Source of the DNA: an uncultured SAR86 cluster bacterium
Lineage (GTDB): Bacteria; Pseudomonadota; Gammaproteobacteria; Magnimaribacterales; D2472
NCBI GenBank assembly: GCA_902623685.1
Contig: CACNUQ010000002.1
Location: 101,650-165,649 of the forward strand
Length of the DNA: 64,000 nt
Direction of reading: 5' to 3'
The notes below the pieces were generated by a model. The model saw nothing but the letters and a program-made list of their open reading frames with translations. It had not been told where the DNA came from and did not search any database. Position numbers and translations under genes: made by a program. Below are positions 25,486 through 64,000 of this stretch, piece after piece. The first letter of the stretch is position 1. Every line of letters begins with the position of its first letter.

Positions 25486-25487
25486 AT

Positions 25488-25564
25488 TGGTCGGGGTAGT
25501 AAGATTTGAACTTACGACCACTCGCTCCCAAAGCGAGTGCGCTACCAGACTGCGCCATACCCCG
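25488..25564 (-). tRNA. tRNA-Pro (UGG)
   Basis: The hand-folded cloverleaf is 77 nt with a 5' CGGGGTA acceptor arm, anticodon loop UUUGGGA and an encoded CCA. It lies 2 nt from tRNA-Arg. Confidence 0.9.
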
Positions 25565-25639
25565 AGACGAATGATCTTAAAGTTTTAAGGTTAAATAATC
25601 AATGTCCATTGCATAAAAATTTAATGATGAGAAAATGTT

Positions 25640-26482
25640 TTGATGGTATCAAAGATATTAGATGGAAAAGCACTTGCAAAATTAGCTGAAGAAGACATTC
25701 AAACTAACGTCTCAAGACTTAAGGAAAAAGGCATCACTCCAACTTTGGCAACAATACTTGTTGGTTTAGATCCAGCCTCAGCAACCTATGTAAAAATGAA
25801 GCAAAATGCCTGTGCTAGATTAGGCATGGATTCAATTGCAGTTGAACTGAGCAAAGATACAACTACAGATGAATTACTAAATTCTATCAATAAGCTTAAC
25901 AATGACAAAAATGTTCATGGAATCTTGTTGCAGCATCCGGTGCCTTCACAAATAAATGAGCGTAAATGCTTTGATGCAATAAATGTTCATAAAGATGTTG
26001 ACGGTGTTACATGCCTTGGTTTTGGGCAAATGACCATGGGAGAGAAAGCATTTGGCTCATGTACTCCAGCTGGAATCATGAGAATTCTTAAGCATTATCA
26101 AGTGGAAATTTCTGGTAAAACTGCTGTTGTAGTTGGCAGAAGTCCAATTCTTGGAAAACCCATGGCTATGATGCTCCTAAATGAAAATGCAACCGTAACT
26201 ATCTGTCATTCGAGAACTAAAAATCTAGAGGAACAAATTAAAAATGCTGATATTGTTATTGGCGCTGTTGGGGTGCCCCGCCTTATTCAAAAAGACTGGA
26301 TCAAAGAAGGTGCAGTTGTTATTGATGCAGGATATCACCCGGCAGAAAAATGCGGAGACATAGATTTGGAAGGTATTGATAACATTGCTTCTGCACATAC
26401 TCCGGTTCCAGGAGGTGTTGGTCCGATGACAATAAATACTCTCATTCTAAATACCCTATTGGCTGCACAACAAGAAAACTAA
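25640..26482 (+). CDS. folD: Bifunctional methylene-THF dehydrogenase / methenyl-THF cyclohydrolase
   Basis: [41 protein letters not shown] and [10 protein letters not shown] are all present. The start may be the ATG at 25643. Confidence 0.9.
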
Positions 26483-26483
26483 T

Positions 26484-28166
26484 ATGTCTGACCTTCCATT
26501 AATAGTTGGGTATGGTGGAATTAATGCAGGTGGTAGATCAATCTTTGATTTTTCACATCAGAGAATGGTATTCGATGATATTGATTTAAATCAACAAAAA
26601 GAAGTTCTGCTGAGCCTCGGTTACCTCATGGGAACCAAGGATAAAGACACAATTTTAAATAAAAGTCTTTTAAGGGCTATAGACAGTGATTTTTTCAATG
26701 TACATAACTTTAGATCTCCAGAATTACCGACATTAGCTGGAGGCCAGCTTCCTTCAGGATTTAATCCTGCATCAACTTATAATTCAAGACAACATCCCCG
26801 AGGTTTGTCAATGACAATTTTTGGTTTGTCTGATGCTGTGAAAAGTCTTGGTTTACCATGGGAGGAAATCTTAAAAAAAATTCCTAGACAAAAAATTTCT
26901 TGTGTTTCAGGTTGTGCTGTTGCACAAGCTGATAAATTTGGGATGGGTGGAATGTTTCAGGCTCCCTTGGCTAAATCAAGAGTTACTAGCAAGCATATGG
27001 CGATGTCCCTTGGTGAGGGAAGCGCAGACTTTGGTCATTCATATGTCTTGGGGAGTATGGGCTCAACAGGGAACTACACAGGTGCATGTGCTACTTTTCA
27101 ATATAATTTAAAACTAGGCATCTCAATGATTCAATCTGGTGAATCGTTAATTAGTTTTGTTGGGGCTGCAGAATCAGGGATTGTTCCTGAAATTTATGAA
27201 GCATTTGCTGCAACACGAGGTCTCGCTGAAGATAAAAATCTTGTTAAGCTTCAAGAAAAATTAGGTGAAGATCCTAAAATACCAAATCATCGAAAAATTT
27301 GTAGACCCTTTGGTGAAAATATTGGAATGATATTGGGAGAATCTGCTCAATTCGTAGTTTTGATGCAAGATGCTCTTGCACTTGAGCTAGGTTTAAATAT
27401 TCATGGTGCTGCACTATCAAGCCATATTCACTCAGATGGTTATAAAAAATCTATTTCTGGTCCAGGAGCTGGTAATTATTTGACTGTTGGCAAAACGTTT
27501 AACGAAATAAAAAAACATTTTTCTTCAAAAGGTTTAAATAAAACTTTTTTTCATGCTCATGGAACTAGCACGCCTCAAAACAGAGAAAGTGAATCCCACA
27601 TAATTTCAAGTATCTCTAAGGCCTTCGGAATTGAGGCATTGCCTGTGACCGCAATTAAATCTTATTTGGGTCACTCATTGGCGGCAGCAGGAGGTGATCA
27701 AATGATAAGTACTTTAGGAAGCTGGAAAAATAATATAATCCCTGGGATCACATCCACACCACAACTCGCAGAAAATGTTCATAAAGAAAATGTGCGATTT
27801 CTATTAGAAAATAAAAGAATTGAGGATGATGAGTTTGATTTTGCTGTTCTTAATGCAAAGGGTTTTGGTGGCAATAACGGAACTTCTCTTGTTGCCTCTC
27901 CCTCTAAGACTATGAAAATGCTTGAGTCTAAATATTCAAAAAGTGAGATTCAAAAATATCTTTCAAAGAAGACCAAAATTGACGATCAGCTCAACGATAG
28001 CAAACAGGAAATCCTTAAAGGTGATAAACAATCTAGATATATCTTTGGAGAGAGTGTAATTGATGGTATGAATGATTTTGATATTGAGGCAGATAAAATC
28101 ACGAATAAATTAAATAAAGAAATATTTGATTTAAACTCAACTTTGCCTTACAAAGATTACTTGTAA
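26484..28166 (+). CDS. fabY: FabY-class beta-ketoacyl synthase (long KAS I/II-domain condensing enzyme)
   Basis: The thiolase-fold catalytic residues are TGACATF (Cys), HAHGTSTP (His) and KSYLGHSLA (His), with NAKGFGGNN. Blocks I recall from Pseudomonas FabY (PA5174) are present: LPLIVGYGGINAGGRS, QLPSGFNP..YNSRQHPRGL, RPFGEN, DGYKKSISGPGAGNYLTV. At 560 aa it is about 150 aa longer than FabB/FabF. Confidence 0.65.
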   Translation: MSDLPLIVGYGGINAGGRSIFDFSHQRMVFDDIDLNQQKEVLLSLGYLMGTKDKDTILNKSLLRAIDSDFFNVHNFRSPELPTLAGGQLPSGFNPASTYNSRQHPRGLSMTIFGLSDAVKSLGLPWEEILKKIPRQKISCVSGCAVAQADKFGMGGMFQAPLAKSRVTSKHMAMSLGEGSADFGHSYVLGSMGSTGNYTGACATFQYNLKLGISMIQSGESLISFVGAAESGIVPEIYEAFAATRGLAEDKNLVKLQEKLGEDPKIPNHRKICRPFGENIGMILGESAQFVVLMQDALALELGLNIHGAALSSHIHSDGYKKSISGPGAGNYLTVGKTFNEIKKHFSSKGLNKTFFHAHGTSTPQNRESESHIISSISKAFGIEALPVTAIKSYLGHSLAAAGGDQMISTLGSWKNNIIPGITSTPQLAENVHKENVRFLLENKRIEDDEFDFAVLNAKGFGGNNGTSLVASPSKTMKMLESKYSKSEIQKYLSKKTKIDDQLNDSKQEILKGDKQSRYIFGESVIDGMNDFDIEADKITNKLNKEIFDLNSTLPYKDYL

Positions 28167-28275
28167 GGTTAAAATAGTATTAAAAAATCATCGGCAGAAT
28201 TAAAAAAATATATAAACTAAAATCTAAAATATCTTAATTAATAATATTTTCCGCGTAAGGAAGGAGAAAAATTAT

Positions 28276-28947
28276 ATGGCGTTTGATAAAACAAAAACGG
28301 ATCCTGTTCTAGGGAAAAAAGTACACGAATATTTAATGTCAGTTGGTGTCGAGACTCCAGTAATTGATAATGGCCTATCACGTAAAGAAAAAATTGATGC
28401 GATCGAGAACAATTTTAAAGAGATAGTTACAACATTGGGACTTGATCTAGAGGATGATAGTCTCACAGATACACCAAAGCGTGTTGCAAAAATGTATGTT
28501 AATGAGATTTTTTGGGGCCTTGATTACGCAGCTTTTCCAAAAGTAACAGTAGTAGATAACAAAATGAAATATAATGAAATGGTCGTAGAAAGAGGCATTT
28601 CTGTTCAATCTTATTGTGAGCATCATCTTGTTAACATTGATGGGCTGGCAACAGTTGGATATATTCCAAACAATAAGGTGCTAGGATTGTCAAAGATGAA
28701 TCGTGTTGTTGAATATTTTTCTAGAAGGCCACAAATACAAGAACGCCTGACCGAGCAAATATATCACGCACTTTCTTTTATCTTAGAAACAGAAAATGTT
28801 GCACTTACAATTGATGCAAAACATTTCTGTGTAAAGTCTAGAGGTGTTGAAGATACTGAGTGCTCAACAGTTACAAGTAGATTAGGCGGAAATTTTAAAG
28901 AGCACCCTGAAGTCAGAGCTGAATTTTTAGCTTTACTTAAGATGTAG
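28276..28947 (+). CDS. folE: GTP cyclohydrolase I
   Basis: SYCEHHL carries the zinc ligands, and RRPQIQERLTEQI and the 223-aa length fit FolE. Confidence 0.9.
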   Translation: MAFDKTKTDPVLGKKVHEYLMSVGVETPVIDNGLSRKEKIDAIENNFKEIVTTLGLDLEDDSLTDTPKRVAKMYVNEIFWGLDYAAFPKVTVVDNKMKYNEMVVERGISVQSYCEHHLVNIDGLATVGYIPNNKVLGLSKMNRVVEYFSRRPQIQERLTEQIYHALSFILETENVALTIDAKHFCVKSRGVEDTECSTVTSRLGGNFKEHPEVRAEFLALLKM

Positions 28948-29308
28948 TTTGTTCTGGTTGGTCATCGCCTAATTCAAGCTCCTCTGACTCTCCATCAACA
29001 ACTTCTGTATGTTCGCCATCCTCATTTGAATCTGATACTTCATACTTATCGCTAAAGGGCCAAGGTTTAGAATCTGTATTAAAACTTAAGAAATTTAATG
29101 CGTCATTAAAAAAGCCTTGAAGCCAGTTATTTGCAGATTGCAATTGATTATTTGTTTTTGAAGTAAACAAGTAAAAAATAAACTGAACTGCAACAAGAAT
29201 AATTAGAATACTGACGACAAAATTTATAGCCGCACCGTATATAACCATAAAAAAAAGCCTTTGCCATTTTTTAATATCTAATAATTCGTCTTTATTAATT
29301 TCACTCAT
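28937..29308 (-). CDS. Small membrane protein with an acidic C-terminal tail (possibly DUF4389-like)
   Basis: Two hydrophobic segments are followed by a D/E-rich tail. It is translationally coupled to gpsA. I recognise no catalytic motif. Confidence 0.4.
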   Translation of the reverse strand: MSEINKDELLDIKKWQRLFFMVIYGAAINFVVSILIILVAVQFIFYLFTSKTNNQLQSANNWLQGFFNDALNFLSFNTDSKPWPFSDKYEVSDSNEDGEHTEVVDGESEELELGDDQPEQTTS

Positions 29309-30339
29309 AATTTATCCTGATATGTAAATTCTACATCAACTTCATTAGGCTGTTCGAGTAAATCTTGAATTAATTCATCAGATGAAGCATTTGCATACAG
29401 AATTTTATATAGAGAATTAACTAGTGGCATGCTAACGTTCATTTTATTTGCTTCATGATAAACAACCTCAAGAGTACGAGCTCCTTCTGCAACTTGTCCA
29501 ACTTTATTTTTTGCATCTGTAAATGAATAATCTTGAGCAAGCAATTCACCTAACTGAAAATTTCTTGAAAGCTTAGAGGTGCATGTTGCCATCAAGTCTC
29601 CCATCCCTGCTAAACCTAAAAAAGTAATTGGATTAGCTCCTTTTGCAACAGCAAATCTACTCATTTCCGCCATGCTCCTTGTAATAATTAACCCTAGGGC
29701 ATTTTCACCTACAGATTTTTCATGGGCAATTCCACAGCAAATTGCATAAATATTTTTGAGGGCTCCTGCTAATTCAACCCCTTGAAGATCTTGGCTTGAA
29801 AAAACCTTAAATGTATCAGATGACAACATAGTTTTTATTTCAAAGTTCACTTCGTCAAATTCTGAAGCAATTACAGTACCAGCAACCTTGTTTTCAGCAA
29901 TTTCTTTGGCAAGATTTGGACCACTAAGTGCACCAATTTTTTTGCCAATTGAATGGCCTATATGTTGATTGATAATATCTGTCATAGTCCGAAAAGGATC
30001 AGATTTAACGCCCTTAGTACACGAAATTACTGCAACAGAAGAGCTAATTAACGGCTCCAAGCGAGAAATTACTTCCTCAAATATATTGCTGGGTGTTGCA
30101 ACTAAAATATAGTCAGAATTTTTAACTGCAGAAGTCAAATCCTCAGATGCAGTTATGTTTTCAGATAACTTTAATTCTGGATGATAGGTTGAATTAGCAC
30201 CTTCTGAATTGATTCTTAAAGCTTGTTCAGCATCACGCACCCATAAACAAACTTCATAGCCATTAGAAGCTGCAATATTAGCTAAAATTGTTCCAAAGCT
30301 TCCTCCACCGAGAACTGAAACACGTTTATTGGTTGACAT
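29305..30339 (-). CDS. gpsA: NAD(P)H-dependent glycerol-3-phosphate dehydrogenase
   Basis: VSVLGGGSFGT is the Rossmann motif, with LSGPNLAKE and GALKNIYAI. Confidence 0.9.
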   Translation of the reverse strand: MSTNKRVSVLGGGSFGTILANIAASNGYEVCLWVRDAEQALRINSEGANSTYHPELKLSENITASEDLTSAVKNSDYILVATPSNIFEEVISRLEPLISSSVAVISCTKGVKSDPFRTMTDIINQHIGHSIGKKIGALSGPNLAKEIAENKVAGTVIASEFDEVNFEIKTMLSSDTFKVFSSQDLQGVELAGALKNIYAICCGIAHEKSVGENALGLIITRSMAEMSRFAVAKGANPITFLGLAGMGDLMATCTSKLSRNFQLGELLAQDYSFTDAKNKVGQVAEGARTLEVVYHEANKMNVSMPLVNSLYKILYANASSDELIQDLLEQPNEVDVEFTYQDKL

Positions 30340-32166
30340 TTATCCTAAATATTTATCTAACTGTCTGAGATATTTGGAAGGATCCTTGGGAGAACCACCT
30401 TCAGCAATTACTGCATAATCAAACAAAAATTCAGCAAAATTATTAAACTCTTTACCTGACATTGCTCCCAATTTTTTTATTAACTTGTGCTTTAGATTAA
30501 CTTCAAAAACAGGCTTAGAGTCTTCAAATGTCTGCCCTGAAGCCTCTAATATTCTTTTTAATTGTGCGCCTGGTTCATTTTTAGAAAGCACTAAACATGC
30601 CGCAGAGTCAACCAGACGAGAGCTGGCTATAACATCAGTAACTCTATGCTCTAAAGATTTCTTCATTTTGTTTATAATTTCTTGCTTTTCTTTAGTAACG
30701 CGAGGTTTTTTTGCGCCTTCCTCAAGCTCCTCCTTGGCGACATTGACTAATTCTTTTCCCTTAAATTGCATTAGTGTAGACATCAGCCACTCATCGATTC
30801 TGTCTGTTAGCAATAGAACCTCTGTTCCATTTGCTTTTAGATTCTCAATATGGGGTGAATTTGCTGCAGCTTCAAATGTATCTGCTATTGAAAAATAAAT
30901 CTTATCTGAATCATCATTCATTCTTTCAATATATTGATCTAGAGTAGTATTTGGACTGTTCTCATCTGAGGCTGAGCTTGAAAATAAAAATAGCTCAGCA
31001 ATTGATTCAGAATTTTCATAATCTTCAGCAGGACCTTCCTTAATAACTAAGCCAAATTCTTTCCAGAATTTTTTATATTCTTCAGGCTTATCCTTTTGCA
31101 TTTTCTTCAAAGTATCAAGAACCCTTTTACTTAAACCTTTTTTAATTGAGTCAACCAGTGGATGGTCTTGTAATATCTCACGGGAGACGTTAAGAGGTAG
31201 GTCGCTAGAATCAACAACGCCTTTTACAAATCGAAGATACAGTGGAAGGAAATGAGCAGCGTCATCCATGATGAATACTCTTTGAATAAAAAGCTTTATC
31301 CCCCTTGGTGTATCTCTGTTCCAAAGATCATATGGAGATTTTTCTGGGATGAATAATAAGCTTGAATACTCCTGCTTGCCTTCAACTTTGTTATGCATCC
31401 ATGTTAAGGGATCGTTTGTATCATATGAAATGAACTTATAAAACTCTTTGTATTCATCTGCTTTAACTGATCTCTTAGACTTCAACCAGATAGCTTCGGA
31501 ATCGTTGATAGTCTCGGATTCACCTTCCTCAGGATTTAATATCAATGGAAAATTGATGTATTGAGAATATTTTTGTAACAAGAATTTTACTCTCATTAAT
31601 TCAGAAAATTCTTTGTTATCCTCGTTCAAATAGATTGTAATGGTTGTTCCTCTATTCTCTTTTGGAATATTCGATAATTGATATGTATCTTCGCCTGTGC
31701 TCTCCCACATTACAGCATCCTCAGGTTTTAAATTCGCTGCTCTAGAGTGAACCGATACTTTCTCAGCAACCATAAAGACAGAATAAAAACCTACACCAAA
31801 TTGACCTATAAGATTTGAATCCTTTTTATTGTCACCAGTCATTTCTGATAAAAATTGGGCTGTACCAGATTTAGCAATTGTTCCTATATTTTCAATAATT
31901 TCTTCCTCACTCATGCCAATTCCATTATCAGAAATAGTAACAGTATTGTTTTTAGCATTTAGACTGATATTGATATTTAACTCTGTATCTCCATCGAGTA
32001 ACTTTGAGTCTTCTATTGCATTGAATCTTAACTTATCAAGGGCATCAGAAGAATTAGAGACTAGCTCTCTTAAAAAAATTTCCTTGTTTGAATACAAGGA
32101 ATGAATCATTAATTGTAAAAGTTGCTTGGTTTCAGTTTGAAATGATTTAGTTTTAGCTTTTGCCAT
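30340..32166 (-). CDS. htpG: Molecular chaperone HtpG (Hsp90)
   Basis: FQTETKQLLQLMIHSLYSNKEIFLRELVSNSSDALDK and GQFGVGFYS are the GHKL ATPase motifs. Confidence 0.95.
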   Translation of the reverse strand: MAKAKTKSFQTETKQLLQLMIHSLYSNKEIFLRELVSNSSDALDKLRFNAIEDSKLLDGDTELNINISLNAKNNTVTISDNGIGMSEEEIIENIGTIAKSGTAQFLSEMTGDNKKDSNLIGQFGVGFYSVFMVAEKVSVHSRAANLKPEDAVMWESTGEDTYQLSNIPKENRGTTITIYLNEDNKEFSELMRVKFLLQKYSQYINFPLILNPEEGESETINDSEAIWLKSKRSVKADEYKEFYKFISYDTNDPLTWMHNKVEGKQEYSSLLFIPEKSPYDLWNRDTPRGIKLFIQRVFIMDDAAHFLPLYLRFVKGVVDSSDLPLNVSREILQDHPLVDSIKKGLSKRVLDTLKKMQKDKPEEYKKFWKEFGLVIKEGPAEDYENSESIAELFLFSSSASDENSPNTTLDQYIERMNDDSDKIYFSIADTFEAAANSPHIENLKANGTEVLLLTDRIDEWLMSTLMQFKGKELVNVAKEELEEGAKKPRVTKEKQEIINKMKKSLEHRVTDVIASSRLVDSAACLVLSKNEPGAQLKRILEASGQTFEDSKPVFEVNLKHKLIKKLGAMSGKEFNNFAEFLFDYAVIAEGGSPKDPSKYLRQLDKYLG

Positions 32167-32190
32167 GATTATGTGTCCCCTATTAAACTA

Positions 32191-32218
32191 ATATGGTGTT
32201 TAAAATTTTAACTTCAAG
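32191..32218 (-). promoter_or_regulatory. Sigma32-type heat-shock promoter of htpG
   Basis: The minus strand reads CTTGAA, a 14-nt spacer, then CACCATAT (consensus CTTGAAA N13-15 CCCCATNT). The -10 element ends 24 nt upstream of the htpG ATG, and an AGGGGA Shine-Dalgarno lies between them. Confidence 0.55.
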
Positions 32219-32224
32219 CACAGA

Positions 32225-32365
32225 TTAATTTTTTTTTGATTCAGCTTTACATCTCTTACTGCAAAATTTTACTTCGTCCCAGGAGCGTTCCCATTTTTTT
32301 CTCCAACTAAAAGATTTTCCACACAATTGGCATAATTTAGTTTGTAGATTTAATTTTTTATGCAA
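32225..32365 (-). CDS. DUF2256-type small zinc-ribbon protein (46 aa), absent from the ORF track
   Basis: My hand translation is MHKKLNLQTKLCQLCGKSFSWRKKWERSWDEVKFCSKRCKAESKKN. CxxCG..F.WRKKW...W..V.FCS.RC is the DUF2256 signature as I recall it. It has a TTG start with no clear SD, 8 nt after the upstream stop. Confidence 0.55.
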   Translation of the reverse strand: MHKKLNLQTKLCQLCGKSFSWRKKWERSWDEVKFCSKRCKAESKKN

Positions 32366-32373
32366 GGCAGGGG

Positions 32374-32772
32374 TTAATCAAAATTTATAAAAAATTGAAT
32401 AATACTTAAAGCAAAAATCACAATGGTGCAATAAACACTAAAACCATGTGAGAAAGAAAATATAGTTTCCCATCCTCTGTCTTTTGCAGCATTGGTAATT
32501 GGAATCCCAATCAGACCAAATAAAGCATGGGCAGAGATATTAAAGCCAATCCACCAACTTAGTTGCGAATCCTGAAAATAAAGTATCAGGATCGCTGGTA
32601 AAGAAAGCAAAAAAATCAACGCGTAATAACGGGGAAATATCGCTCGTAAAAATCGTGATGCTGAATCCTCATCAAGAGTTTTAAATATTATTGGTGTAGT
32701 TAAAACAAGGTGACAAAAAATAATCCCAGCCATTGTGAGATTTAGAAGGATAAGTGTTATTTGACTGCTCAT
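32374..32772 (-). CDS. Four-TM membrane protein, DUF4149/TMEM205-like
   Basis: It has a hydrophobic 4-TM profile and an FPRYY motif. I chose the start MSSQ at 32772 because the track's extension overlaps tRNA-Asp. Confidence 0.5.
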   Translation of the reverse strand: MSSQITLILLNLTMAGIIFCHLVLTTPIIFKTLDEDSASRFLRAIFPRYYALIFLLSLPAILILYFQDSQLSWWIGFNISAHALFGLIGIPITNAAKDRGWETIFSFSHGFSVYCTIVIFALSIIQFFINFD

Positions 32773-32781
32773 ATTAAAAAA

Positions 32782-32859
32782 TGGCGATCCGGACGAGACT
32801 CGAACTCGCAACCTCCGCCGTGACAGGGCGGCGTTCTAACCAAATTGAACTACCGGACC
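32782..32859 (-). tRNA. tRNA-Asp (GUC)
   Basis: The hand-folded cloverleaf has the acceptor pair GGTCCGG/CCGGATC, anticodon loop CUGUCAC and an encoded CCA. Confidence 0.9.
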
Positions 32860-33051
32860 GCGAACGCTTTTGCATGATAGCTTTTTTTGATTTTTCTGCA
32901 ACTACTTTTTCCATTACCTTTTAGGGATAATTTTGTCAAATTCAATGAAAAAAATATATGTAATAATTTTACTCAAGTCTTTAAATTTTGATATGCTTAT
33001 CTAACTGTCCATGGGGGAGAGTATTAATATATTAATAATAAGGAGTGTTAA

Positions 33052-33789
33052 ATGAAATATTTATTGACTCTCATTGGTTTGATAAGCATGCCTTCATTTG
33101 CTGAATCAGCAGGTGATCTTCAGACCAGTGATTTAACAGGTATTTCCTTTTGGCTTGTAACAGCAGCTATGCTTGCAGCTACTGTGTTCTTCTTTGCAGA
33201 AAGAGATCAAGTAAAAGGTAAATGGAAAACATCTTTATCAGTAGCAGGTTTAGTTACTGGTGTCGCATTCTGGCACTATCTCTATATGAGAGGTGTTTGG
33301 GTAGATACTGGTGCATCTCCAACTGTATACAGATATATAGACTGGTTAATCACAGTTCCACTTCAAATAATTGAGTTCTATTTGATTCTAAGAGTCTGTA
33401 CAAATGTATCTTCTGGTCTTTTCTGGAGATTATTAGTTGCATCCTTAGTCATGCTTATTGCAGGATTCATGGGAGAAACTGGATCAAACGCGTTGGTTTG
33501 CTTTGTTATTGGAATGGCTGGATGGTTATACATCATCTATGAAGTCTTTACTGGTGAAGCAGGCAAGCTGAATGCATCTAGTGGCAACGCAGCTGCTCAG
33601 CAAGCTTTCAGTACAATCAGACTGATTGTAACTGTAGGTTGGGCTATTTATCCTATTGGGTATTTCCTTACAATGGGAACAGGAGCAGATCTTGCTGGTG
33701 CAAACCTAATATATAACCTTGCAGATTTTATAAATAAAATTGCTTTCGGTTTAGCTATTTGGGCTGCTGCAGTTAGTGACTCAGAATAG
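33052..33789 (+). CDS. Proteorhodopsin, blue-absorbing type (Gln at the tuning position)
   Basis: The sequence aligns along its length with green proteorhodopsin EBAC31A08 as I recall it. RYIDWLITVPLQIIEF carries the proton acceptor Asp97, Gln105 and the donor Glu108. The Schiff-base Lys lies in NLADFINKIAFG. A signal peptide and an AAGGAG Shine-Dalgarno are present. Confidence 0.95.
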   Translation: MKYLLTLIGLISMPSFAESAGDLQTSDLTGISFWLVTAAMLAATVFFFAERDQVKGKWKTSLSVAGLVTGVAFWHYLYMRGVWVDTGASPTVYRYIDWLITVPLQIIEFYLILRVCTNVSSGLFWRLLVASLVMLIAGFMGETGSNALVCFVIGMAGWLYIIYEVFTGEAGKLNASSGNAAAQQAFSTIRLIVTVGWAIYPIGYFLTMGTGADLAGANLIYNLADFINKIAFGLAIWAAAVSDSE

Positions 33790-33802
33790 TCTTATTTAAA
33801 CT

Positions 33803-33835
33803 AAAAAAGCCTGGATTTTTCCAGGCTTTTTTTTG
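33803..33835 (+). terminator. Rho-independent (bidirectional) terminator after proteorhodopsin
   Basis: AGCCTGGA-TTTT-TCCAGGCT is a perfect 8-bp stem, flanked by an A-run and a T8 run. Confidence 0.8.
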
Positions 33836-33841
33836 TTTGTT

Positions 33842-33917
33842 TGGTGGGTGATGACAGGCTCGAACTGCCGACCCTCTCGGTGTAAACGAGATGCTCTCCC
33901 AACTGAGCTAATCACCC
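33842..33917 (-). tRNA. tRNA-Val (UAC)
   Basis: The hand-folded cloverleaf is 76 nt with anticodon loop UUUACAC and an encoded CCA. Confidence 0.9.
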
Positions 33918-55972: not shown

Positions 55973-56956
55973 ATGAAACTTGAACCAAACGTGTGGTTTG
56001 ATGAAGTTGTTAAAACTTATCATCGTATTTCGCCCCATATACATCACACTCCCTTGGTGACTTGTCCTGATTTAAATGAGGAATTAGGCGGTACGTACTT
56101 ATTTAAATCTGAATCCCTACAAATAACGGGTTCGTTTAAAATCAGAGGCGCCCTATCTGCTATTTCAAGACTGTCAAAAAAAGAGCTTAAACGTGGAGTG
56201 ATTGCGTATTCATCAGGAAATCATGCCCAAGGGGTTGCCCATGCAGCAAAAGTCTTTAATACTCCAGCAACGGTGGTGATGCCAAAAGATGCCCCGGCGA
56301 GAAAAATTGCTAATGCTCAGTCTCTTGGTGCAGAAGTAATATTTTATGATCGACGCACCGAAAGCAGAGAGAAAATGAGTGTGGAAATAGCCAAAGAAAG
56401 AGATTTAGTTATTATCAATCCATACGATGCTTTAGCTACTATCTATGGCCAAGGAACAGCTGCATACGAAGTCATTAATGATGCAAACAATCCTAAGCTT
56501 GATAATGCAATTATTTGTGCAGGCGGCGGTGGACTGACTGCAGGCTCATGTATTTCAATCAAACACATCAATCCTGAGTGTAATGTCTTTACTGCAGAGC
56601 CTGAAGCTTGGAACGATCATCAATTGTCTTTTGAAAAAAATGAAAGAGTTGCCATGGATACTAATCGAGGCGGACTCTGTGATGGATTGTTAACTCCTAC
56701 TCCAGGAGAGATACCCTTTGCGATCAACACTCACTTTGGTGTTAAAGGTTTAGCAGCCTCTGATCAGGCAGTCTGTGAGGCCATGCGTTTTGCCTTTAAT
56801 CGACTTAATTTAAAGCTTGAGCCAAGCGGTGCCGTTGCTTTAGCTTGTCTGCTACAAAATAAAGAACGATTTCAAGGCACAAGAACTTTGGTGATGCTCT
56901 CAGGTGGCAACGTAGATCAAAAAACTTTCACTGATTGTTTAGCCAGAGCTAGTTAG
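55973..56956 (+). CDS. PLP-dependent threonine/serine dehydratase (serine-racemase-like)
   Basis: SLQITGSFKIRGA carries the PLP lysine, with SSGNHAQG and a GGGGL phosphate loop. It lacks the regulatory domains of IlvA. Confidence 0.8.
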   Translation: MKLEPNVWFDEVVKTYHRISPHIHHTPLVTCPDLNEELGGTYLFKSESLQITGSFKIRGALSAISRLSKKELKRGVIAYSSGNHAQGVAHAAKVFNTPATVVMPKDAPARKIANAQSLGAEVIFYDRRTESREKMSVEIAKERDLVIINPYDALATIYGQGTAAYEVINDANNPKLDNAIICAGGGGLTAGSCISIKHINPECNVFTAEPEAWNDHQLSFEKNERVAMDTNRGGLCDGLLTPTPGEIPFAINTHFGVKGLAASDQAVCEAMRFAFNRLNLKLEPSGAVALACLLQNKERFQGTRTLVMLSGGNVDQKTFTDCLARAS

Positions 56957-57686
56957 CAGAATCTTCACTTTCTTTTTGTAGCAGATCATCTATCCCAGTT
57001 CCACCAGTCATGACATCCACAATGACACCTATGACCATGTTAAGCAAAATCACAGCATTAATGATGATGAAAGAAACAAAGAAAATCCATGCATAAGGAT
57101 AGACTTCTATCACATTGCCCATGATGGCAGCCCAATCATCGTAAGTGGCGACTTGAACTAGTGTGATTAAAGCAAGACCTATGTTACCCCAATTTTCTGG
57201 GTCAACTTTGCCAAAGAACATGGTGCCAATGGCGCCCCAGACATACATGAAGATAAACATTAATAAAGCTATAAAGCCAACTCTCGGTATCGTTTTGACT
57301 AGAGAGTCGATGATGTGACGGAAAGCTGGGACCACTGTGATAATTCTTAAGACCCTAATAATTCTTAACAACCTTGCCACAAAGACACTTTCAACATTAT
57401 TGATTGGAACCAGTGAAATGGTAACAATTAAAAAGTCGAAGATATTCCATCCATCGCTAAAGAATTTTTTTAATGACTGCTCAGAAATCATGCGAATGAT
57501 TATTTCGATCAAGAAAAATAAAGTGATCGCATAATCAAATAAATCAAGATAAACAGTGTATTCAGGTGATATGTCATAGGAGCTAACTCCTGCATAAATA
57601 GCAGAGGCAACAATCACAGCAATTACTATGCTGCTAAAGACATTACTATTTCTAATTTTTAGAAAAAATTCTACAAAACTGTTCAT
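56949..57686 (-). CDS. Single-domain voltage-gated cation channel (BacNav/NaChBac family) with an atypical TYDDW filter
   Basis: It has a 6-TM layout. S4 reads RLLRIIRVLRII, with Arg at every third position. The pore helix and filter read LITLVQVATYDDWAAIM. Confidence 0.8.
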   Translation of the reverse strand: MNSFVEFFLKIRNSNVFSSIVIAVIVASAIYAGVSSYDISPEYTVYLDLFDYAITLFFLIEIIIRMISEQSLKKFFSDGWNIFDFLIVTISLVPINNVESVFVARLLRIIRVLRIITVVPAFRHIIDSLVKTIPRVGFIALLMFIFMYVWGAIGTMFFGKVDPENWGNIGLALITLVQVATYDDWAAIMGNVIEVYPYAWIFFVSFIIINAVILLNMVIGVIVDVMTGGTGIDDLLQKESEDSAN

Positions 57687-57734: not shown

Positions 57735-60700
57735 TTAATCAACAAGATAAATCCCCTCTGCCATGTAAAAATCATTGGCGCCTGCTGTGCCAGTATCGCC
57801 TGATTTATATAAATTGACGTTCACCCTACCGCCACTCTCATCCGGTGATGAACCACCATACAAAGCGCCTGCCACTGATGCCCCACCCAACCAAGAATTA
57901 CTGAGACTGTCAGTCGAGCTGCCTGTGTAAGTATTGGTTGTACCAGTGATGGCAACATTAAAGGATGTAAAGCCAGCGTTTGAGACAATAGGATTTTTAT
58001 CATCAAAATTGGTAAAGGCTAAAGTTCCAGAATAGCCGCTGGAGCCCCAATTAAAGGTTGCCGCCACATCGGCGCTAGTGGTGTATTTATGCACGTCATA
58101 GTTAGTGCCGGTTTGATTGTAACGATAAGCCACATTCACCACCGCAGCCCCACTCATCGAAGCTGAGCCTGAGGTTGGTATCTCACTTTGATCGACCACT
58201 TCACCGCCGACCCATGTACCCAAGTGAACTGAAGCATTTTGCGTGCCAGCATTGGGAGAAATATCAGCCGCGCTCATGGCCCAAAAACCCCAAGTCGAAT
58301 ACTCTGTATCGGGCATGGAATCATTACCGCCTGAGTGAAACAAATCAGAATCTTCTTTATCCAAAGTATTATAAGAAACCATGACCCCAGCTAAGTTGTT
58401 GGAGCCGCCTGAAGTCCCATCGATTTGAGCGCCATCGTCTTGAATCTCAGCCCCAAAGACTTCACTTGAAATGTAAGCTGATTTTGCTGCATCGTTGGTG
58501 GCATCACCAAACTTCAAAGTCATAGATCCAGTATCCACAGTTGTCCAATTTGAGGTGTAATTATTCGAAGGTGCTGCACTGATAGTCATGGGTGCAACTA
58601 CCTGAACATCATCGTTCGTCGTATCAAACGTAAAGCTAGCCAAGGTACTGCTTGAGCGAATCGAAGAAAGCTGAGAGTTACCTGTGCCACTGACATCAAA
58701 TTCTAAAATGCCACTGAAAAATCCGCTGTAACCTGTGGCACTTGAGGTATAGAAATCAGAGGACCTAAAATCACTTAAGCTTGCATAATCTACCCAAGCC
58801 GAGCCTGAAGGGTTAACATCTTGCACCACAGCTGAAATATTAAAGGAGCCGGTGCTGAAGGTGTCATTGTTGGAGTTATAATTAACTCCCAAAGTCATAT
58901 TACCTGACTTGTAGGGATCAGAAGATGTGATCATGGCGCCGCCAGGCTGATTAATACCTGCATACACGCCAGAGGCATTGGTACCCCAAAAACAACCACT
59001 TTCATTGGAAGTTGCACACTCAATTGGAGAAGTACCATAATTAATACCCAGACCATCATTATCTGCATTGGTTGCACCTTGATAGGACCAATAATGATAA
59101 CCATCCATGCCCAAGCCAGTATCTCCAGCTGAATATCGGGTTGTATCATTTTTTCGATAATCCACATTAGATATCACCACATTCAAAAGACTCTGTTGAT
59201 CGTCTCGAGTGGAATTGCCTGAGGCACCCTCATAAGAATCTTTAAAGGAAATTTGTGCCCAAAGTCCAACCCCGACGCCACTTGGATTGAGAACTTGCCA
59301 CCACATGGATTGACCCTCAGGTAACTCATTGGTGCTCCCACTAAATCTGGAGGTTACAAGCACGTCAGAGCTATCAAGGACGATGCTAGAAAAATCATAG
59401 TAGTTATCATAGGTATTACATGCCGAGGCGTTATTCCCTACCCCTAAGCAATAATCGTGACCAACATCACCATAAGACCAAAGGGTTTTTGGAATGAAAT
59501 TAGGAATAAAATAATCGTCGCTGGTTCCACTGGCAGCAAAGTTTTCAATTGGGATAACTGCCATGGCAATGACTCGCTTGTTGCCATCGGTAAAAGAGGC
59601 AAAATTAGCATCGGTGAAAATTTCTCCGGCTAATGTAACCTGATCTTCGTAGAGGTTGTAAGTACTTGAAGTAATTGAGCCATCACCGGACAAACCAACG
59701 ATCCATTGCATGATGGCGGCATTATTTGCATTGCCAGCATATTGATGATCCCAATTAATATCGTTAACTGCAATCAAAATTCCATTGGTATCGCTGTCGG
59801 TCTGATCAGGCCCCCAATAACCCATAAACTTTGCCAATTTAATCCCATTACCAGCGCTGTTTAAATATCTACCACAGCCATTACAGTAAATGCTATAACC
59901 ATTTATGCCTTCTGCTATGCCGCCACTGCCTGTGTAAGTAGAGTCAATGAGTTCAGTGTCAGTTGAACCATCTCGAGCAGTAAATGTGGCAGTTCCACCG
60001 CCAATGGCAGCCAAAATAGCATTTAACCTGCTTTCATTTACTAAAGATGAGCAGCATTGCTCAGAATAAAGGACATAGAGAACATTGCCTGCGGTTTCTA
60101 AAAAAGTCTCATAACCACTTATATCGGTTATAGATGTGCTTAATCTCAAATCAATAATCAAAGAGTAAGAGCTTAAATCTGCGGGAACCGATGAAGCATA
60201 AACAACATCATAAGTTTTGCCATCTGCCGTAATAGCATCGACCCATTGATCATCCCGATTGCCATAACTTCCGTCATAGCTACTAAAGTTCCATAATATT
60301 AAAGCTTTGCCTCCAACAGCTGCACTGGTAAATGTTATGTCGCTACCTGCCTTGTCAGTGGTCATGAACCAATATTCAGCGCTTTCAAGTCGTCCTGCGG
60401 TCAGGAAATCACCATTGGATATGGTGGTGGTTACGTTCGTGCCTAGAGTACTGTAATACTTGCCATTAATGTCGAAGGAATTTGGTGCAAAAGCAAACTC
60501 CCCATTGCCTGAAGTATCTATGGGGAAATAATAGCGCCAATTTAATACGGTCCCAGAATTAATTTCCACTGGAACATAGTTATTAGTCGTATCGTCCACT
60601 GAAGTAATCGCAGTTGAATTGGTGGTACCGACTTGCTCTAAAGTGAATGCAGCAAGGCTTGATCCAGATGGACCACGGGTAGCCGTGGCACTGAAACCGC

Positions 60701-63700
60701 TTCTAGAAACTGAATTATAAGCTGCAGAATAGCGCAGCACCGCTGATTCAAGCTCTTCTACATTGCCCACATTGACGGTAAAGGTATCGGTGACAGTCGT
60801 ATCTCCTGTGGTTGCCGTGAGCGTTAAGGAATAACTTTTTGCAGTTTCAAAGTCTAAAGTTGCATTGGTGGTAACGTTACCACTGCTATCGACACTAAAA
60901 TTACTGCTGCCAGTCCCACTTAAAGAGTAAGTCACAGAATCGCTATCTGGATTATTGATGCTTGATGAGGCCACGCTGGTACCAGAGCTTGAACTTTCCC
61001 CTATCGCCGCACCACTGTTAGCAAGCGTAACAGACAGGCCATTGATTACTTCATTAGTTACATTCACCGTGAATGTTTCGGTCACTGTGTTGGTGCCATC
61101 TGTTGCCGTTAAAGTAATTGAGTAAGATGTAGTCGTCTCATAATCGAAAGAACCGTTAGTGGTGATAGTGCCATCGCTGGATACACTAAACTTATCACTG
61201 CCGGTTCCAGATAATGAGTAAGTCACCGTGCCACTGCCATCGGTGGTTGTGGTGGTAGTTGTAACAGCAGATCCTGAGCTAACGCCCTCACTAATTGAAA
61301 TGGTACTACTAGCAAGTGCAATGGAAAGTTCAACCACATCAAGCACCGAGAAAGAAATAACTTCAGAAATTGAATGGACTCCGTCGCTGATGGTCAGGGT
61401 AAATGAAAAAGATGTGACTGTTTCATAGTCCAAGCCACCGCTGAGTGAAATGTTGCCATTGCTATCAACTGTAAATTTATCGCTGCCCTCACCTGATAAA
61501 GTGTAAGTGATGGTACCACCTTCAGGATCAGTTGCTGATGCATTGGCAATGGTTGTCCCGACTGCAGCATCCTCTGAGAAAGAGGTTGATGCCATTGCGA
61601 TAGAGGTACTAGGTACTTCATTTACATCTGTAATCGTAATAGCAATAACCTCAGACACTTCATGAACACCATCGGTCACTGTCAGGGTTACGCTGTAACT
61701 TGATACCGTTTCATAATCAAAGTTTGAATTGAGAGTGATGTTTCCCGCAGCATCGATGGAAAAAAGCTCGCTTCCAGTTCCAGATAAAGAATATGTCATA
61801 TCTCCAGCCTCGGGATCAATTGCAGAGAAGGTAGCGATTTGAGAACCTGTGGTGATATCTTCAGCAAAAGAAACTGCAGAAATTACCGTTGATAAAGTGG
61901 GCGCTTCGTTGACATCACTTACTGAAATTAGTATCTCAGTGGTAGTTATATTTTCACCATCAGTAGCTGAAATAGTGATGTTATAACTAGTATCAATTTC
62001 ATAATCCAAACCTCCTGAAAGAGTGATATTACCCTCAGTATCAATACTAAATAAGTCGCTGCCATCTCCAGAAAGGGAAAAAGTAATGTCAGATGACTCT
62101 GGATCTGTTGCATCTATAGATGCTATGGCAAAGCCGATGGATATATCCTCAGCAAATGAGTCCGAGTTAATAACGCTTGAAACCACCGGAGCTTCATTGA
62201 TATCTGCGATGACAATTGATATCTCCTGAGTTGAAATATTAGTCCCATCACTTGCTGAGAGAGTTAGTGAGTATTGGGTGATGCTTTCATAGTCCAAAGG
62301 ATTTTTGACGGAAATATTTCCATTTGCATCGACTTCAAAATCATCACTCCCCTCACCTGAAAGTGAGTAAGTGATTTCACCTCCCTCTGGATCTATGGCC
62401 GAGCTTTCAACTATCACTGAACCTACATCAAGATTTTCTGCAAACGATTCAGCAGCAAGGGAAGATGTTAAGTCTATGGGTTCGTCTATGTCAGATATTG
62501 CAAGCTCAAATGAAATTTCAGAAATATCTCCATTCTCTGATTCAATGGTGACAACAAAACTAAGATTAGTTTGAGTCTCATAATCCAAGGCTTCAACGAG
62601 AACGATTGACATGCTCTCGTCATCAAAGACCACAAACTCTGCATCATCACCAGCAATTGAAACCGTATAGGACAGATCTCCAGGATTTATAAAAGTTAAA
62701 GGTGCCAGAACCTCATCACGAATATTCTCATCAATTGACTGAATAGGATCTGCGCTATCAACCTGAAAAACCGGCGCAACTTCTGCTGATGCCTCTTGAG
62801 TACTTTCTGTTGCTGCCTCACCAATATCGTCAGTAGGATCTTCATTCACATCATCTGGCTCCACAGTAGCTGCATCTACCTCAGCCTCATATGCATCTGC
62901 TGTGCCTAGATCTTCTGGCTCAGCGTTTGACGAAGCATCAGACACTCCTGAAGAATCAAGCATGCTCTCATCAACATCTACATCGTTAGAATCACCTGCA
63001 TCATCAGTAGTCTCTGGTGTTTCCTCTGCAGAAGTATTTCCCTCAAAAGGTTCAGCAATATCTTCACTTTCATCATTGGAAATTGGTGCAGAGTCTGCTT
63101 CACTAGCGTCTTCATTTTGAGCTTCTTCGGACTCAGGAGATGAAGAATCCTCTTCAGTTTGAGCATCTTCGGACTCAGAAGATGAAGAATCCTCTTCAGC
63201 TGGAGATTCTTCGGACTCAGATGATGAAGAATCCTCTTCAGTTTGATCATTTTCTGATTCATCAGCTTCGGTCGTTGAGTTATCCTCTGGCTCATCATCA
63301 GATGCTTCCAAGCCTTCCTGCATTTCATCCAAACTTTCCTCGGTAACTTCAACAGGTTCACTAGGTTCAGAGTCTTCATCCTCTACAGTGACTGAAAAAC
63401 CTGGCTCTGTAACAGTGGTTTGATAATCAGCTGAACACTGATCGCCAAAAGAATCCAAATCAACGCAGTTGGGCGTCACAGTCATCTCTTCACCATATAA
63501 AAAAGTTGCTGTGGTTTCTGGACCGTTCGTCTGCACAATACCTATGCCACCTCTAATACCAACCGTGGCAGAGTTAGTTCGAATAAGCGCAGGTTGTTTT
63601 TTTGTAACTTTGCCACCAACTATCCGCAACAGACCCCTAGCTGTAACCTCCAATGATCCCTCAGCAGTATCTGGGTTATAAATAAATCTATCTAAAACAA

Positions 63701-63977
63701 CGCTAGAATTAGGACCAACGGAAAATGCTGTGCCGTCCAATAACAACATTTGAGCACGTCCAATTTCATCAGTTTCGATGGTATGGTTTTGGATGATTTC
63801 ATAACCAGCTTCAACAAGCTTACGCTCTTGTTCAAGTGTAAGATCAGTTGTATTTTTATTAACTGCAGATGCAACCCCAATCTGCTCCTGCGCATTGACC
63901 TCAGTGGCGACCAAGCCAACAATTAAGACTATCAACGTTAATATGTTTTTAGTTTGCATAATTTTTATTTTAAACAT
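57735..63977 (-). CDS. Giant secreted multidomain protein: FecR-like, acidic tract, seven cadherin-like repeats, unassigned region, TbpB-like C-terminal barrel
   Basis: The ORF is an uninterrupted 2080 aa with a Sec signal peptide (…ATEVNA/QE). Amino acids 60-160 resemble a FecR domain (GRAQMLLLDGTAFSVGPNSSVVLDRFIY). Amino acids 197-400 are D/E/S-rich. Amino acids 401-1075 hold seven repeats of about 96 aa ending in D(V/I)NE(A/V)P-like linkers. The C-terminal 190 aa show the TbpB/handle-barrel pattern (YSTWGFW ... IPTSGSASMSG ... GALYGGSSPDESGG). Confidence 0.85.
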   Translation of the reverse strand: MFKIKIMQTKNILTLIVLIVGLVATEVNAQEQIGVASAVNKNTTDLTLEQERKLVEAGYEIIQNHTIETDEIGRAQMLLLDGTAFSVGPNSSVVLDRFIYNPDTAEGSLEVTARGLLRIVGGKVTKKQPALIRTNSATVGIRGGIGIVQTNGPETTATFLYGEEMTVTPNCVDLDSFGDQCSADYQTTVTEPGFSVTVEDEDSEPSEPVEVTEESLDEMQEGLEASDDEPEDNSTTEADESENDQTEEDSSSSESEESPAEEDSSSSESEDAQTEEDSSSPESEEAQNEDASEADSAPISNDESEDIAEPFEGNTSAEETPETTDDAGDSNDVDVDESMLDSSGVSDASSNAEPEDLGTADAYEAEVDAATVEPDDVNEDPTDDIGEAATESTQEASAEVAPVFQVDSADPIQSIDENIRDEVLAPLTFINPGDLSYTVSIAGDDAEFVVFDDESMSIVLVEALDYETQTNLSFVVTIESENGDISEISFELAISDIDEPIDLTSSLAAESFAENLDVGSVIVESSAIDPEGGEITYSLSGEGSDDFEVDANGNISVKNPLDYESITQYSLTLSASDGTNISTQEISIVIADINEAPVVSSVINSDSFAEDISIGFAIASIDATDPESSDITFSLSGDGSDLFSIDTEGNITLSGGLDYEIDTSYNITISATDGENITTTEILISVSDVNEAPTLSTVISAVSFAEDITTGSQIATFSAIDPEAGDMTYSLSGTGSELFSIDAAGNITLNSNFDYETVSSYSVTLTVTDGVHEVSEVIAITITDVNEVPSTSIAMASTSFSEDAAVGTTIANASATDPEGGTITYTLSGEGSDKFTVDSNGNISLSGGLDYETVTSFSFTLTISDGVHSISEVISFSVLDVVELSIALASSTISISEGVSSGSAVTTTTTTTDGSGTVTYSLSGTGSDKFSVSSDGTITTNGSFDYETTTSYSITLTATDGTNTVTETFTVNVTNEVINGLSVTLANSGAAIGESSSSGTSVASSSINNPDSDSVTYSLSGTGSSNFSVDSSGNVTTNATLDFETAKSYSLTLTATTGDTTVTDTFTVNVGNVEELESAVLRYSAAYNSVSRSGFSATATRGPSGSSLAAFTLEQVGTTNSTAITSVDDTTNNYVPVEINSGTVLNWRYYFPIDTSGNGEFAFAPNSFDINGKYYSTLGTNVTTTISNGDFLTAGRLESAEYWFMTTDKAGSDITFTSAAVGGKALILWNFSSYDGSYGNRDDQWVDAITADGKTYDVVYASSVPADLSSYSLIIDLRLSTSITDISGYETFLETAGNVLYVLYSEQCCSSLVNESRLNAILAAIGGGTATFTARDGSTDTELIDSTYTGSGGIAEGINGYSIYCNGCGRYLNSAGNGIKLAKFMGYWGPDQTDSDTNGILIAVNDINWDHQYAGNANNAAIMQWIVGLSGDGSITSSTYNLYEDQVTLAGEIFTDANFASFTDGNKRVIAMAVIPIENFAASGTSDDYFIPNFIPKTLWSYGDVGHDYCLGVGNNASACNTYDNYYDFSSIVLDSSDVLVTSRFSGSTNELPEGQSMWWQVLNPSGVGVGLWAQISFKDSYEGASGNSTRDDQQSLLNVVISNVDYRKNDTTRYSAGDTGLGMDGYHYWSYQGATNADNDGLGINYGTSPIECATSNESGCFWGTNASGVYAGINQPGGAMITSSDPYKSGNMTLGVNYNSNNDTFSTGSFNISAVVQDVNPSGSAWVDYASLSDFRSSDFYTSSATGYSGFFSGILEFDVSGTGNSQLSSIRSSSTLASFTFDTTNDDVQVVAPMTISAAPSNNYTSNWTTVDTGSMTLKFGDATNDAAKSAYISSEVFGAEIQDDGAQIDGTSGGSNNLAGVMVSYNTLDKEDSDLFHSGGNDSMPDTEYSTWGFWAMSAADISPNAGTQNASVHLGTWVGGEVVDQSEIPTSGSASMSGAAVVNVAYRYNQTGTNYDVHKYTTSADVAATFNWGSSGYSGTLAFTNFDDKNPIVSNAGFTSFNVAITGTTNTYTGSSTDSLSNSWLGGASVAGALYGGSSPDESGGRVNVNLYKSGDTGTAGANDFYMAEGIYLVD
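60753..62777 (-). repeat. Seven tandem cadherin-like coding repeats of about 290 nt
   Basis: The recurring pattern is F.E....G..I......DPE.G.ITYSLSG.GSD.F.VD..GNI.....LDYE....Y.LTL.A.DG...........I.DVNEAP. The repeats have diverged at the nucleotide level. Confidence 0.75.
63114..63251 (-). repeat. Tandem 42-nt repeat, about 3.3 copies, encoding EEDSSSSESE(E/D)xxx
   Basis: Units start at 63126, 63168 and 63210 (ttcggactcagNagatgaagaatcctcttcag...). The protein units are EEDSSSSESEESPA, EEDSSSSESEDAQT and EEDSSSPESEEAQN. Confidence 0.9.
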
Positions 63978-64000
63978 TGATAATTTACCTGAGCAGTGAA

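Follow-up and report, generated by a model that had tools for sequence, protein, structure and literature searches.

Background

The closest described relatives of the locus presented here are the type 11 secretion systems. Their outer-membrane proteins, of the DUF560/Slam family, consist of a periplasmic TPR domain of ~140 amino acids (aa) and a 14-strand barrel, and secretion of their cargo proteins is targeted by an eight-strand barrel which these have in common at the C-terminus (PMC8406197). The signal that Slam recognises is a motif at the cargo's C-terminus, and the cargo crosses the Slam channel in an unfolded state (PMC9090332). A survey of type 11 cargo distinguished about 10 architectures, with cadherins, FecR and cyclases unmentioned and few barrel-type cargo for its marine cluster. 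A second group of relatives pairs FecR-type domains with CHASE2 sensors. In Burkholderia and relatives, a LysM-FecR protein (COG4254) is encoded in an operon with a CHASE2 histidine kinase (PMC5192318), and in Sinorhizobium meliloti the FecR-domain protein SMc02177 adjoins the CHASE2 cyclase CyaD1, or SMc02176 (PMC5498481). In the latter species the CHASE2 cyclases receive an external protein signal only if the outer-membrane protein NsrA is present. Here we analyse a window of 64,000 nucleotides (nt) from an uncultured SAR86 cluster bacterium (assembly GCA_902623685.1, contig CACNUQ010000002.1, positions 101,650 to 165,649), in which the minus-strand open reading frame (ORF) 57735..63977 encodes a protein of 2080 aa, hereafter the giant. 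The gene upstream of it encodes an outer-membrane protein with a TPR domain and 14 strands, hereafter the OMP. Our best reading is that this free-living marine bacterium makes the giant as an outsized, non-lipidated, modular type 11 cargo, unprecedented in size and architecture and with a link to a CHASE2 cyclase. We found no publication describing the family or its conserved gene trio (searching SAR86 with cadherin, and CHASE2 with Slam, T11SS or DUF560), and no characterised protein of such an arrangement came to light, as a first reading of the DNA from its sequence alone had supposed.

Results

A cargo-type handle and barrel at the C-terminus

The ORF runs for 2080 aa without interruption and its product is rich in D, E, S, T and G but contains very little K and R (318 D+E vs 56 K+R). 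Its segments are listed below; identities are those of 11 orthologues from loci of the window's kind (type A) to the window's protein.

57735..63977, minus strand: whole ORF, 2080 aa; stop codon at 57735-57737, alternative start Met7 at 63959
63891..63977, minus strand: Sec (signal peptidase I) signal peptide, aa 1-29, predicted cut after VNA, no lipobox; junction kept across orthologues
63378..63890, minus strand: FecR-like domain, aa 30-200 (match to Pfam PF04773 at aa 66-162), Cys pair 171/181; 73-94% identity
62751..63377, minus strand: acidic low-complexity linker, aa 201-409, containing 80 D+E, 36 S and 0 K/R; 38-81% identity
60750..62750, minus strand: seven cadherin repeats by PF00028 and motifs, aa 410-1076, units ending at aa 500, 597, 693, 789, 884, 980 and 1076; 46-88% identity
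60318..60749, minus strand: conserved module "midA", aa ~1077-1220; 76-86% identity in most orthologues
59670..60317, minus strand: swappable cassette delimited by homologue comparison, aa 1221-1436, Cys 1308/1309/1365/1368; 23-32% identity in the nearest relatives, 71-75% in two more distant genomes
58791..59669, minus strand: module "midC", delimited by its conservation, aa 1437-1729, Cys pairs 1510/1520 and 1654/1662
58323..58790, minus strand: beta-rich "handle" ahead of the barrel (AlphaFold2 model, Foldseek), aa 1730-1885
57738..58322, minus strand: TbpB/fHbp-type beta-barrel by profile and fold, aa 1886-2080, the proposed type 11 targeting domain; handle and barrel 85-99% identity (handle 64% in locus L040)

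The C-terminus had first been assigned to the TbpB-type barrels on the strength of motifs, which are present as EYSTWGFW, PTSGSASMSGAA (with M in place of the Y quoted earlier) and GALYGGSSPDESGG. The corresponding Pfam family stayed silent: PF01298 (TbpB_B_D) matched neither the whole giant nor its C-terminal 281 aa, PF08794 likewise gave no match to the giant, and a phmmer search of the tail against PDB sequences returned chance matches only. The assignment nevertheless stands by profile and fold. An exhaustive profile search of 1.84 billion representative proteins recovered 229 relatives only. Some of these are distant proteins, 1530-1542 aa long, that carry a FecR domain at the N-terminus, contain the tail domain twice and weakly match Pfam FHBP_C. 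Once these distant relatives were included in the barrel profile, 23 out of 23 matches among PDB sequences were to fHbp or to TbpB, in the latter to its C-lobe barrel, with E-values (0.008-0.045) that are marginal; the alignments fall on the barrel. For aa 1730-2080 an AlphaFold2 model was obtained (pLDDT 80.3, pTM 0.83). Compared with the PDB using Foldseek, it matched TbpB best (E 5e-9, probability 1.00) and next, likewise at probability 1.0, the NHBA C-domain, LbpB, HpuA and fHbp; no autotransporter barrel appeared among the 50 tail-fold matches listed. We accept the predicted identity of the tail as a TbpB/fHbp-type handle and barrel, present in the giant as a single unit at the C-terminus.

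An adjacent Slam-like outer-membrane protein

The end of the OMP gene lies within the window:

63965..64000, minus strand: 3' end of the OMP gene (FTAQVNYQCLK and stop), the last 36 bases of the window, corresponding to the 11 final codons and the stop

The OMP stop is located 10 nt downstream of the first ATG of the giant and 5 nt upstream of Met7, so that the genes overlap if the first ATG is used. Because this ATG sits inside the upstream gene, Met7 (63959) may be the true start.

In syntenic SAR86 loci the OMP has ~443 aa with a signal peptide. Its AlphaFold2 model, built from an alignment of database proteins (pLDDT 87.3), shows six N-terminal helices (aa 32-139, TPR) and then 14 long strands. 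The SlipAM family (PF04575) was matched at E<=1 by 6 of the 27 members of the OMP family, one of which (P0459) scored 24.7 bits against a cut-off of 22, and TPR_Slam (PF24575) was weakly matched (E<=1) by 12 of the 27. Searches of the OMP against PDB sequences with phmmer and with a profile retrieved generic TPR proteins only, and an NCBIfam scan of the OMP gave nothing. Judged by sequence, the OMP family would be a divergent, remote relative of Slam/DUF560. The fold search does not separate Slam from other TPR-barrel or 14-strand proteins, since BcsC, PelB, CymA and OmpG all match. A homology of the OMP with S. meliloti NsrA was rejected, since the beta-barrel part of NsrA alone spans aa 600-1200.

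The sequence-only reading had seen no type 1, 5 or 9 secretion signal and had left the export route unclear. Pfam and NCBIfam scans of the giant agree on the first point, with no match to RTX repeats, a type 1 signal, or autotransporter or type 9 domains, and these three routes were rejected for their missing signatures. On the second point there is now a candidate route, the adjacent Slam-like OMP. Type 11 export is the best explanation because the tail is of cargo type and the gene next door, with which the giant's gene has a stop-start overlap, is Slam-like.

The conserved trio

Two kinds of loci encode giants in SAR86: type A, to which the window belongs, and type B, located between BaxI and PNPOx. 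The type-A gene order is: DUF481 outer-membrane protein(-), CHASE2 + adenylate/guanylate cyclase(-), OMP(+), giant(+), voltage-gated-type ion channel(+). Sixteen SAR86 type-A loci with enough flanking sequence show both the OMP and the CHASE2 cyclase, including L006, whose tail is 99% identical to the window's. The SAR86 cyclase is located beyond the window's end and is transcribed divergently from the OMP-giant pair. At type-B loci, one or several tandem giants are found between BaxI and PNPOx with neither OMP nor cyclase adjoining.

The genomes encoding the distant FecR...barrel proteins have 62-68% G+C. In two distinct high-G+C lineages these proteins are encoded in a tight same-strand operon ordered OMP (TPR, 440-455 aa), FecR...barrel protein, CHASE2 cyclase, in which the OMP is homologous to the SAR86 OMP (hhalign probability 99.8, E 1.8e-27, 370 columns). 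The OMP thus adjoins the giant or its relative in at least 16 SAR86 loci and in two high-G+C lineages. Since the trio persists across distant lineages, the conserved unit is OMP, FecR/barrel protein and CHASE2 cyclase. A Pfam scan detected no cadherin domain in the distant relatives scanned, which indicates that only the SAR86 proteins have the cadherin stalk; the same probably holds for the middle modules.

The N-terminal end and the stalk

The modules that had been proposed for the N-terminal half were recovered, with some changes in detail. The signal peptide, MFKIKIMQTKNILTLIVLIVGLVATEVNA with the predicted cut before QEQ, is free of Cys and therefore has no lipobox. Among 11 SAR86 orthologues the signal peptides vary and the residues after the predicted cut (Q/E-E-(Q)-IGVASAVNKNTTDL) are nearly invariant. 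The FecR-like domain scores 25.1 bits against PF04773 when the whole protein is searched and 28.5 bits with aa 1-210, for a cut-off of 24; by this profile the match is real but marginal. Pfam gives the PF04773 core only, with no anti-sigma domain, transmembrane helix or FecR C-terminal (STN-binding) domain, and the likeness of the giant to FecR is limited to the fold; it is not an anti-sigma regulator of the FecR kind. A phmmer search of this region against PDB sequences gave chance matches only.

The tract of about 200 aa noticed earlier as nearly all Asp, Glu and Ser measures 209 aa. It contains a tandem array of a 42-nt unit (3.3 copies, 89% match, 63109-63246) coding for 14-aa units of the (E)EDSSSSESE type, which is a likely site of strain-to-strain length variation. 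Seven cadherin-like repeats follow, as first counted: PF00028 matches with 212 bits in 6 stretches, and motifs delimit seven units of 91-97 aa. The DxNEAP-type linkers that had been attributed to the repeats hold for linkers 1-4 (DIDEP, DINEAP, DVNEAP and DVNEVP, of DxNE(A/V)P or DIDEP type), which are putatively Ca-binding; linkers 5-7 (LDVVEL, TNEVING and GNVEEL) are degenerate.

A variable middle between conserved ends

Beyond the stalk, Pfam and NCBIfam scans of aa 1076-2080 gave no match in the giant nor in 10 homologues with other cassettes. The ~815 residues that had resisted assignment are now reduced to ~650 (aa 1077-1729), which have no match in Pfam, NCBIfam or PDB sequences and which homologue comparison divides in three. 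The central part is a cassette exchanged wholesale among otherwise close relatives; at least 10 cassette types, of 216-300 aa, fill one slot flanked by conserved anchors. A profile of midC matched nothing among PDB sequences. This module is the deepest-covered region of the gene in metagenomes and metatranscriptomes. Metagenome contig depth rises five- to twenty-fold over aa ~1460-1860 (58400-59600) in run X1, with a clear but smaller rise in other runs; many co-occurring strains seem to be near-identical there and different elsewhere.

The conserved ends fit conserved partners, a translocon at one end and a cyclase or TPR domain at the other, and the variable middle is what would be expected of an exposed part that is under pressure to diversify. 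As the barrel belongs to the most conserved segment while the middle varies, it is better read as a secretion-targeting module than as a ligand-capture part.

Proposed mechanism

We consider it probable, with some reserve, that the giant is a cell-surface type 11 cargo of SAR86 whose tail is recognised by the adjacent Slam-like OMP and whose FecR-like end may address the CHASE2 cyclase. Sec would take the giant to the periplasm, where the OMP would recognise handle and barrel and, starting from the C-terminus, move the protein over the outer membrane. The exposed binding part would consist of the cadherin stalk and the middle modules with their strain-variable cassette, and the FecR-like domain with its 209-aa acidic tether would be the cell-proximal end. 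The CHASE2 cyclase next door is a plausible partner for the FecR-like domain. We infer signalling from the giant to the cyclase: the FecR-like end would most likely communicate with the periplasmic CHASE2 domain, so that surface events alter cyclic-nucleotide levels.

A more specific form of this proposal is that the trio constitutes a previously unrecognised trans-envelope signalling device, which we put forward tentatively as possible but on the unlikely side. The folded FecR-like domain would then act as a periplasmic stopper, the acidic linker would run through or beside the OMP barrel, and contact with CHASE2 would convert binding or pull outside into cAMP or cGMP, possibly acting on the neighbourhood's cyclic-nucleotide-gated channel. 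Channels with Ion_trans and cyclic-nucleotide-binding domains are encoded three or four genes upstream of the giant, past the CHASE2 cyclase, in two loci (L001 2041-2862 and L004 2110-3153). Between channel and cyclase lie a DUF481 outer-membrane protein and either an MscS-type channel (L001) or an 81-aa ORF (L004). This channel is a possible downstream target of the cyclase.

Several points weigh against the cargo and signalling proposal as a whole. PF01298 is without a match, and the sequence link of the tail to TbpB/fHbp is marginal (E ~0.01) and leans mainly on predicted structure. The OMP of the window's lineage (P0098) matches neither SlipAM nor TPR_Slam, which are matched by some family members only, and Foldseek aligns the OMP with BcsC, CymA, PelB, OmpG and FadL and with no chain described as Slam. 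The experimentally verified cargo of the literature cited (TbpB, a 65 kDa lipoprotein; HpuA; the haemophore HrpC; Pls) are far smaller than the giant, and the passage of 2080 residues through such a pore is without known precedent. At the other end of the protein, the FecR score barely exceeds its cut-off, the type-B paralogous giants have no adjacent OMP or cyclase, and SMc02177 of S. meliloti is dispensable for signal perception by the CHASE2 cyclases (PMC5498481).

Alternative explanations

The giant might be a type 11-exported adhesin or capture protein devoid of signalling, its FecR-like domain also being outside, released or loosely attached, and the cyclase being a regulator of the operon's expression or otherwise linked. 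Soluble type 11 cargo is indeed secreted entirely (PMC8406197), the BaxI...PNPOx paralogues have the FecR-like domain with no cyclase near, the divergent transcription of the SAR86 cyclase fits shared regulation, and the dispensability of SMc02177 points the same way (PMC5498481). The same-strand trio operon of the distant high-G+C lineages speaks against it: because its protein has no cadherins, the conserved set is FecR, barrel, OMP and CHASE2, not adhesion. Furthermore, FecR-CHASE2 adjacency recurs in other proteobacteria and the FecR-like end is far better conserved than the cadherin stalk. We judge this explanation unlikely.

The sequence-only reading had suggested a device for capture or adhesion at the cell surface. 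In the capture form of this view the TbpB-like tail would itself bind a ligand, for example a metal, haem or cofactor complex, while held off by the cadherin stalk. The predicted fold of the tail matches TbpB, LbpB and HpuA, and in haemophilin-type cargo the barrel belongs to the functional protein (PMC8406197). However, genes for TonB-dependent receptors or for uptake are absent from the conserved neighbourhood. If the N-terminus is cell-proximal, the barrel would form the distal tip; yet it varies less than any other part, and the variable cassette lies just upstream. The handle, which carries specificity in TbpB, is conserved here too. Capture by the tail is in our view quite improbable.

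It is very improbable that the OMP is a plain porin or one of the TPR-porins that export exopolysaccharides (BcsC/PelB/PgaA-like), in which case the giant would stay periplasmic or reach the surface otherwise. The best Foldseek matches of the OMP (BcsC, CymA, PelB, OmpG) would agree with it, as would the NCBI label of OMP family members ("porin family protein") and the SlipAM cut-off, which most of them miss. On the other hand, SlipAM is the most frequent barrel family among them (6/27, one above cut-off), the only other being DUF2860 (2/27), and TPR_Slam is matched by 12/27. The model combines 14 strands with a short TPR domain of ~110 aa and is in this respect Slam-like, PgaA-type proteins having 16 strands (PMC8406197). 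Polysaccharide synthase genes were not seen nearby, and the stop-start overlap with the gene of a cargo-type barrel is preserved in three lineages.

Authenticity and occurrence of the giant gene

A chimeric or collapsed assembly, for which the seven protein-level repeats and the short tandem DNA repeat might have argued, is ruled out with a practically negligible residual chance, as the cadherin units have diverged too far in DNA to count as tandem repeats (the sole array in the gene being that of the acidic tract), the ORF is intact (2046-2606 aa) and keeps its module order in no fewer than 11 independent single-cell assemblies of SAR86, and short contigs of four marine metagenomes tile the gene at 90-100% identity with no consistent joints. 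Contigs from several metatranscriptomes align to the conserved C-terminal half (57.8-60.7 kb), which suggests expression in the sea, with the caveat that such libraries can contain DNA.

The guess of a planktonic, streamlined host proved right, the nearest public loci being those of the SAR86 single-cell genomes AG-325-E16 and AG-453-K07 (99% identity across the last 351 residues). The 75 related loci found in a one-genome-per-species collection are nearly all from SAR86. Short contigs with this SAR86 family that were binned as Flammeovirgaceae, Nitrosopelagicus, Methanobacteriota, Cryomorphaceae and Marinovum (L022, L024, L041, L052, L053, L059) are most likely binning errors. The giant gene has 42-44% G+C for a window mean of ~35%; the part of the window covering 58001-64000 shows these values against 31-40% in the other 2-kb bins. 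We tentatively attribute the raised G+C to amino-acid composition.

Neighbouring genes and other features

Directly downstream of the giant, the window encodes a channel:

56949..57686, minus strand: ion channel (Ion_trans/PKD_channel), 245 aa, linked to the giant in type-A loci and in L066-L079

This channel has an S4-like RLLRIIRVLRII segment, and its pore motif T-Y-D-D-W is invariant in 41 giant-adjacent homologues. The pore motif is TLESW in NaChBac and TLDDW in CavAb, engineered to be Ca-selective. By analogy, T-Y-D-D-W suggests a natively Ca-selective bacterial channel; if so, it would make an interesting companion to a cadherin protein that is presumed to bind Ca. In a more distant SAR86 group (L066-L079) the giants have 2391-2654 aa, with a FecR end ~53% and a tail ~32% identical to the window's; the downstream channel is kept, and no recognisable Slam-like OMP or CHASE2 cyclase was found within the flank.

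Second loci, of type B, occur in many SAR86 genomes (L002, L003, L028, L044, L049, L054, L064 and others), with one to several tandem FecR-cadherin-barrel giants between BaxI and PNPOx/UvrD; that of L002 also encodes a 2211-aa protein without any Pfam domain. In one type-A locus (L011 641-4435), a second giant ORF, a 1264-aa fragment with its own cassette, is located where other loci hold the OMP, which suggests tandem duplication or rearrangement.

Elsewhere in the window, five tRNA genes are found on the minus strand at 23539, 25412, 25491, 32785 and 33845 (stretch 23539-33917). Apart from these, no Rfam family reached its gathering score in the window.

Discussion

Few bacterial groups of the surface ocean are as abundant as SAR86, and the giant gene is a concrete candidate for the way in which a streamlined cell could present a surface protein that is both very large and variable among strains. 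To our knowledge, type 11 secretion has so far been verified only in animal-associated bacteria and with small cargo; if our reading is true, free-living marine bacteria have it as well, and its cargo can reach 2080 residues. The link to CHASE2, found in genomes from 35% to 66% G+C, offers a testable idea, that of a FecR-domain protein partner as the CHASE2 input. We know of no signal identified so far for the CHASE2 sensor family, which would gain a protein partner as input signal if the trans-envelope device were real. The swappable cassette marks a site of strong diversification, which matters for how natural populations interact with phages, grazers or substrates.

Comparison with known systems

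By its size, its stalk of putatively Ca-binding Ig/cadherin-like repeats, its strong acidity and its high strain variation, the giant resembles the very large repeat adhesins of the LapA, MpIBP and SiiE kind, which marine and other Gram-negative bacteria export by type 1 secretion. Unlike them, it has an N-terminal Sec signal peptide and, according to Pfam, no RTX or type 1 C-terminal signal, and genes for an ABC transporter, a membrane-fusion protein and TolC do not adjoin it.

With FecA-FecR-FecI the proposed system would share the principle of an outer-membrane component relaying a surface event to a periplasmic FecR-type domain and then to a cytoplasmic output. It differs in that the giant lacks the anti-sigma N-terminal domain, the transmembrane helix and the FecR C-terminal domain (Pfam), that neither a TonB-dependent transducer nor an ECF sigma factor is nearby, and that the output would be a cyclase. 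The FecR + CHASE2 pairs of Burkholderia and S. meliloti come closer, as they too have a FecR-type domain after a signal peptide, encoded beside a CHASE2 sensor. In those pairs the protein is small and periplasmic, whereas the FecR-like domain studied here forms the N-terminus of a giant, probably exported protein, which also lacks the LysM domain of the Burkholderia protein.

TbpB proper is a bilobed lipoprotein; having no lipobox and one handle-barrel unit, the giant is not a TbpB. With the type 11 cargo as a whole (TbpB, LbpB, HpuA, fHbp, haemophilin/HrpC, Pls) it shares predicted Sec dependence, a C-terminal handle with a barrel of predicted TbpB/fHbp type, and a conserved tail behind a variable N-terminal or middle part. 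As in type 11 pairs, the adjoining gene encodes an outer-membrane protein in which a TPR domain on the periplasmic side precedes a barrel of 14 strands. It departs from them by its 2080 aa and lack of lipidation, and by its FecR-like, acidic-linker, cadherin and unknown modules, foreign to the ~10 cargo architectures surveyed. The host is a free-living oligotroph and not an animal-associated bacterium, and Pfam models mostly fail on OMP and barrel because of their strong divergence. Lastly, the OMP-giant pair is linked not to TonB-dependent receptors but to a CHASE2 cyclase.

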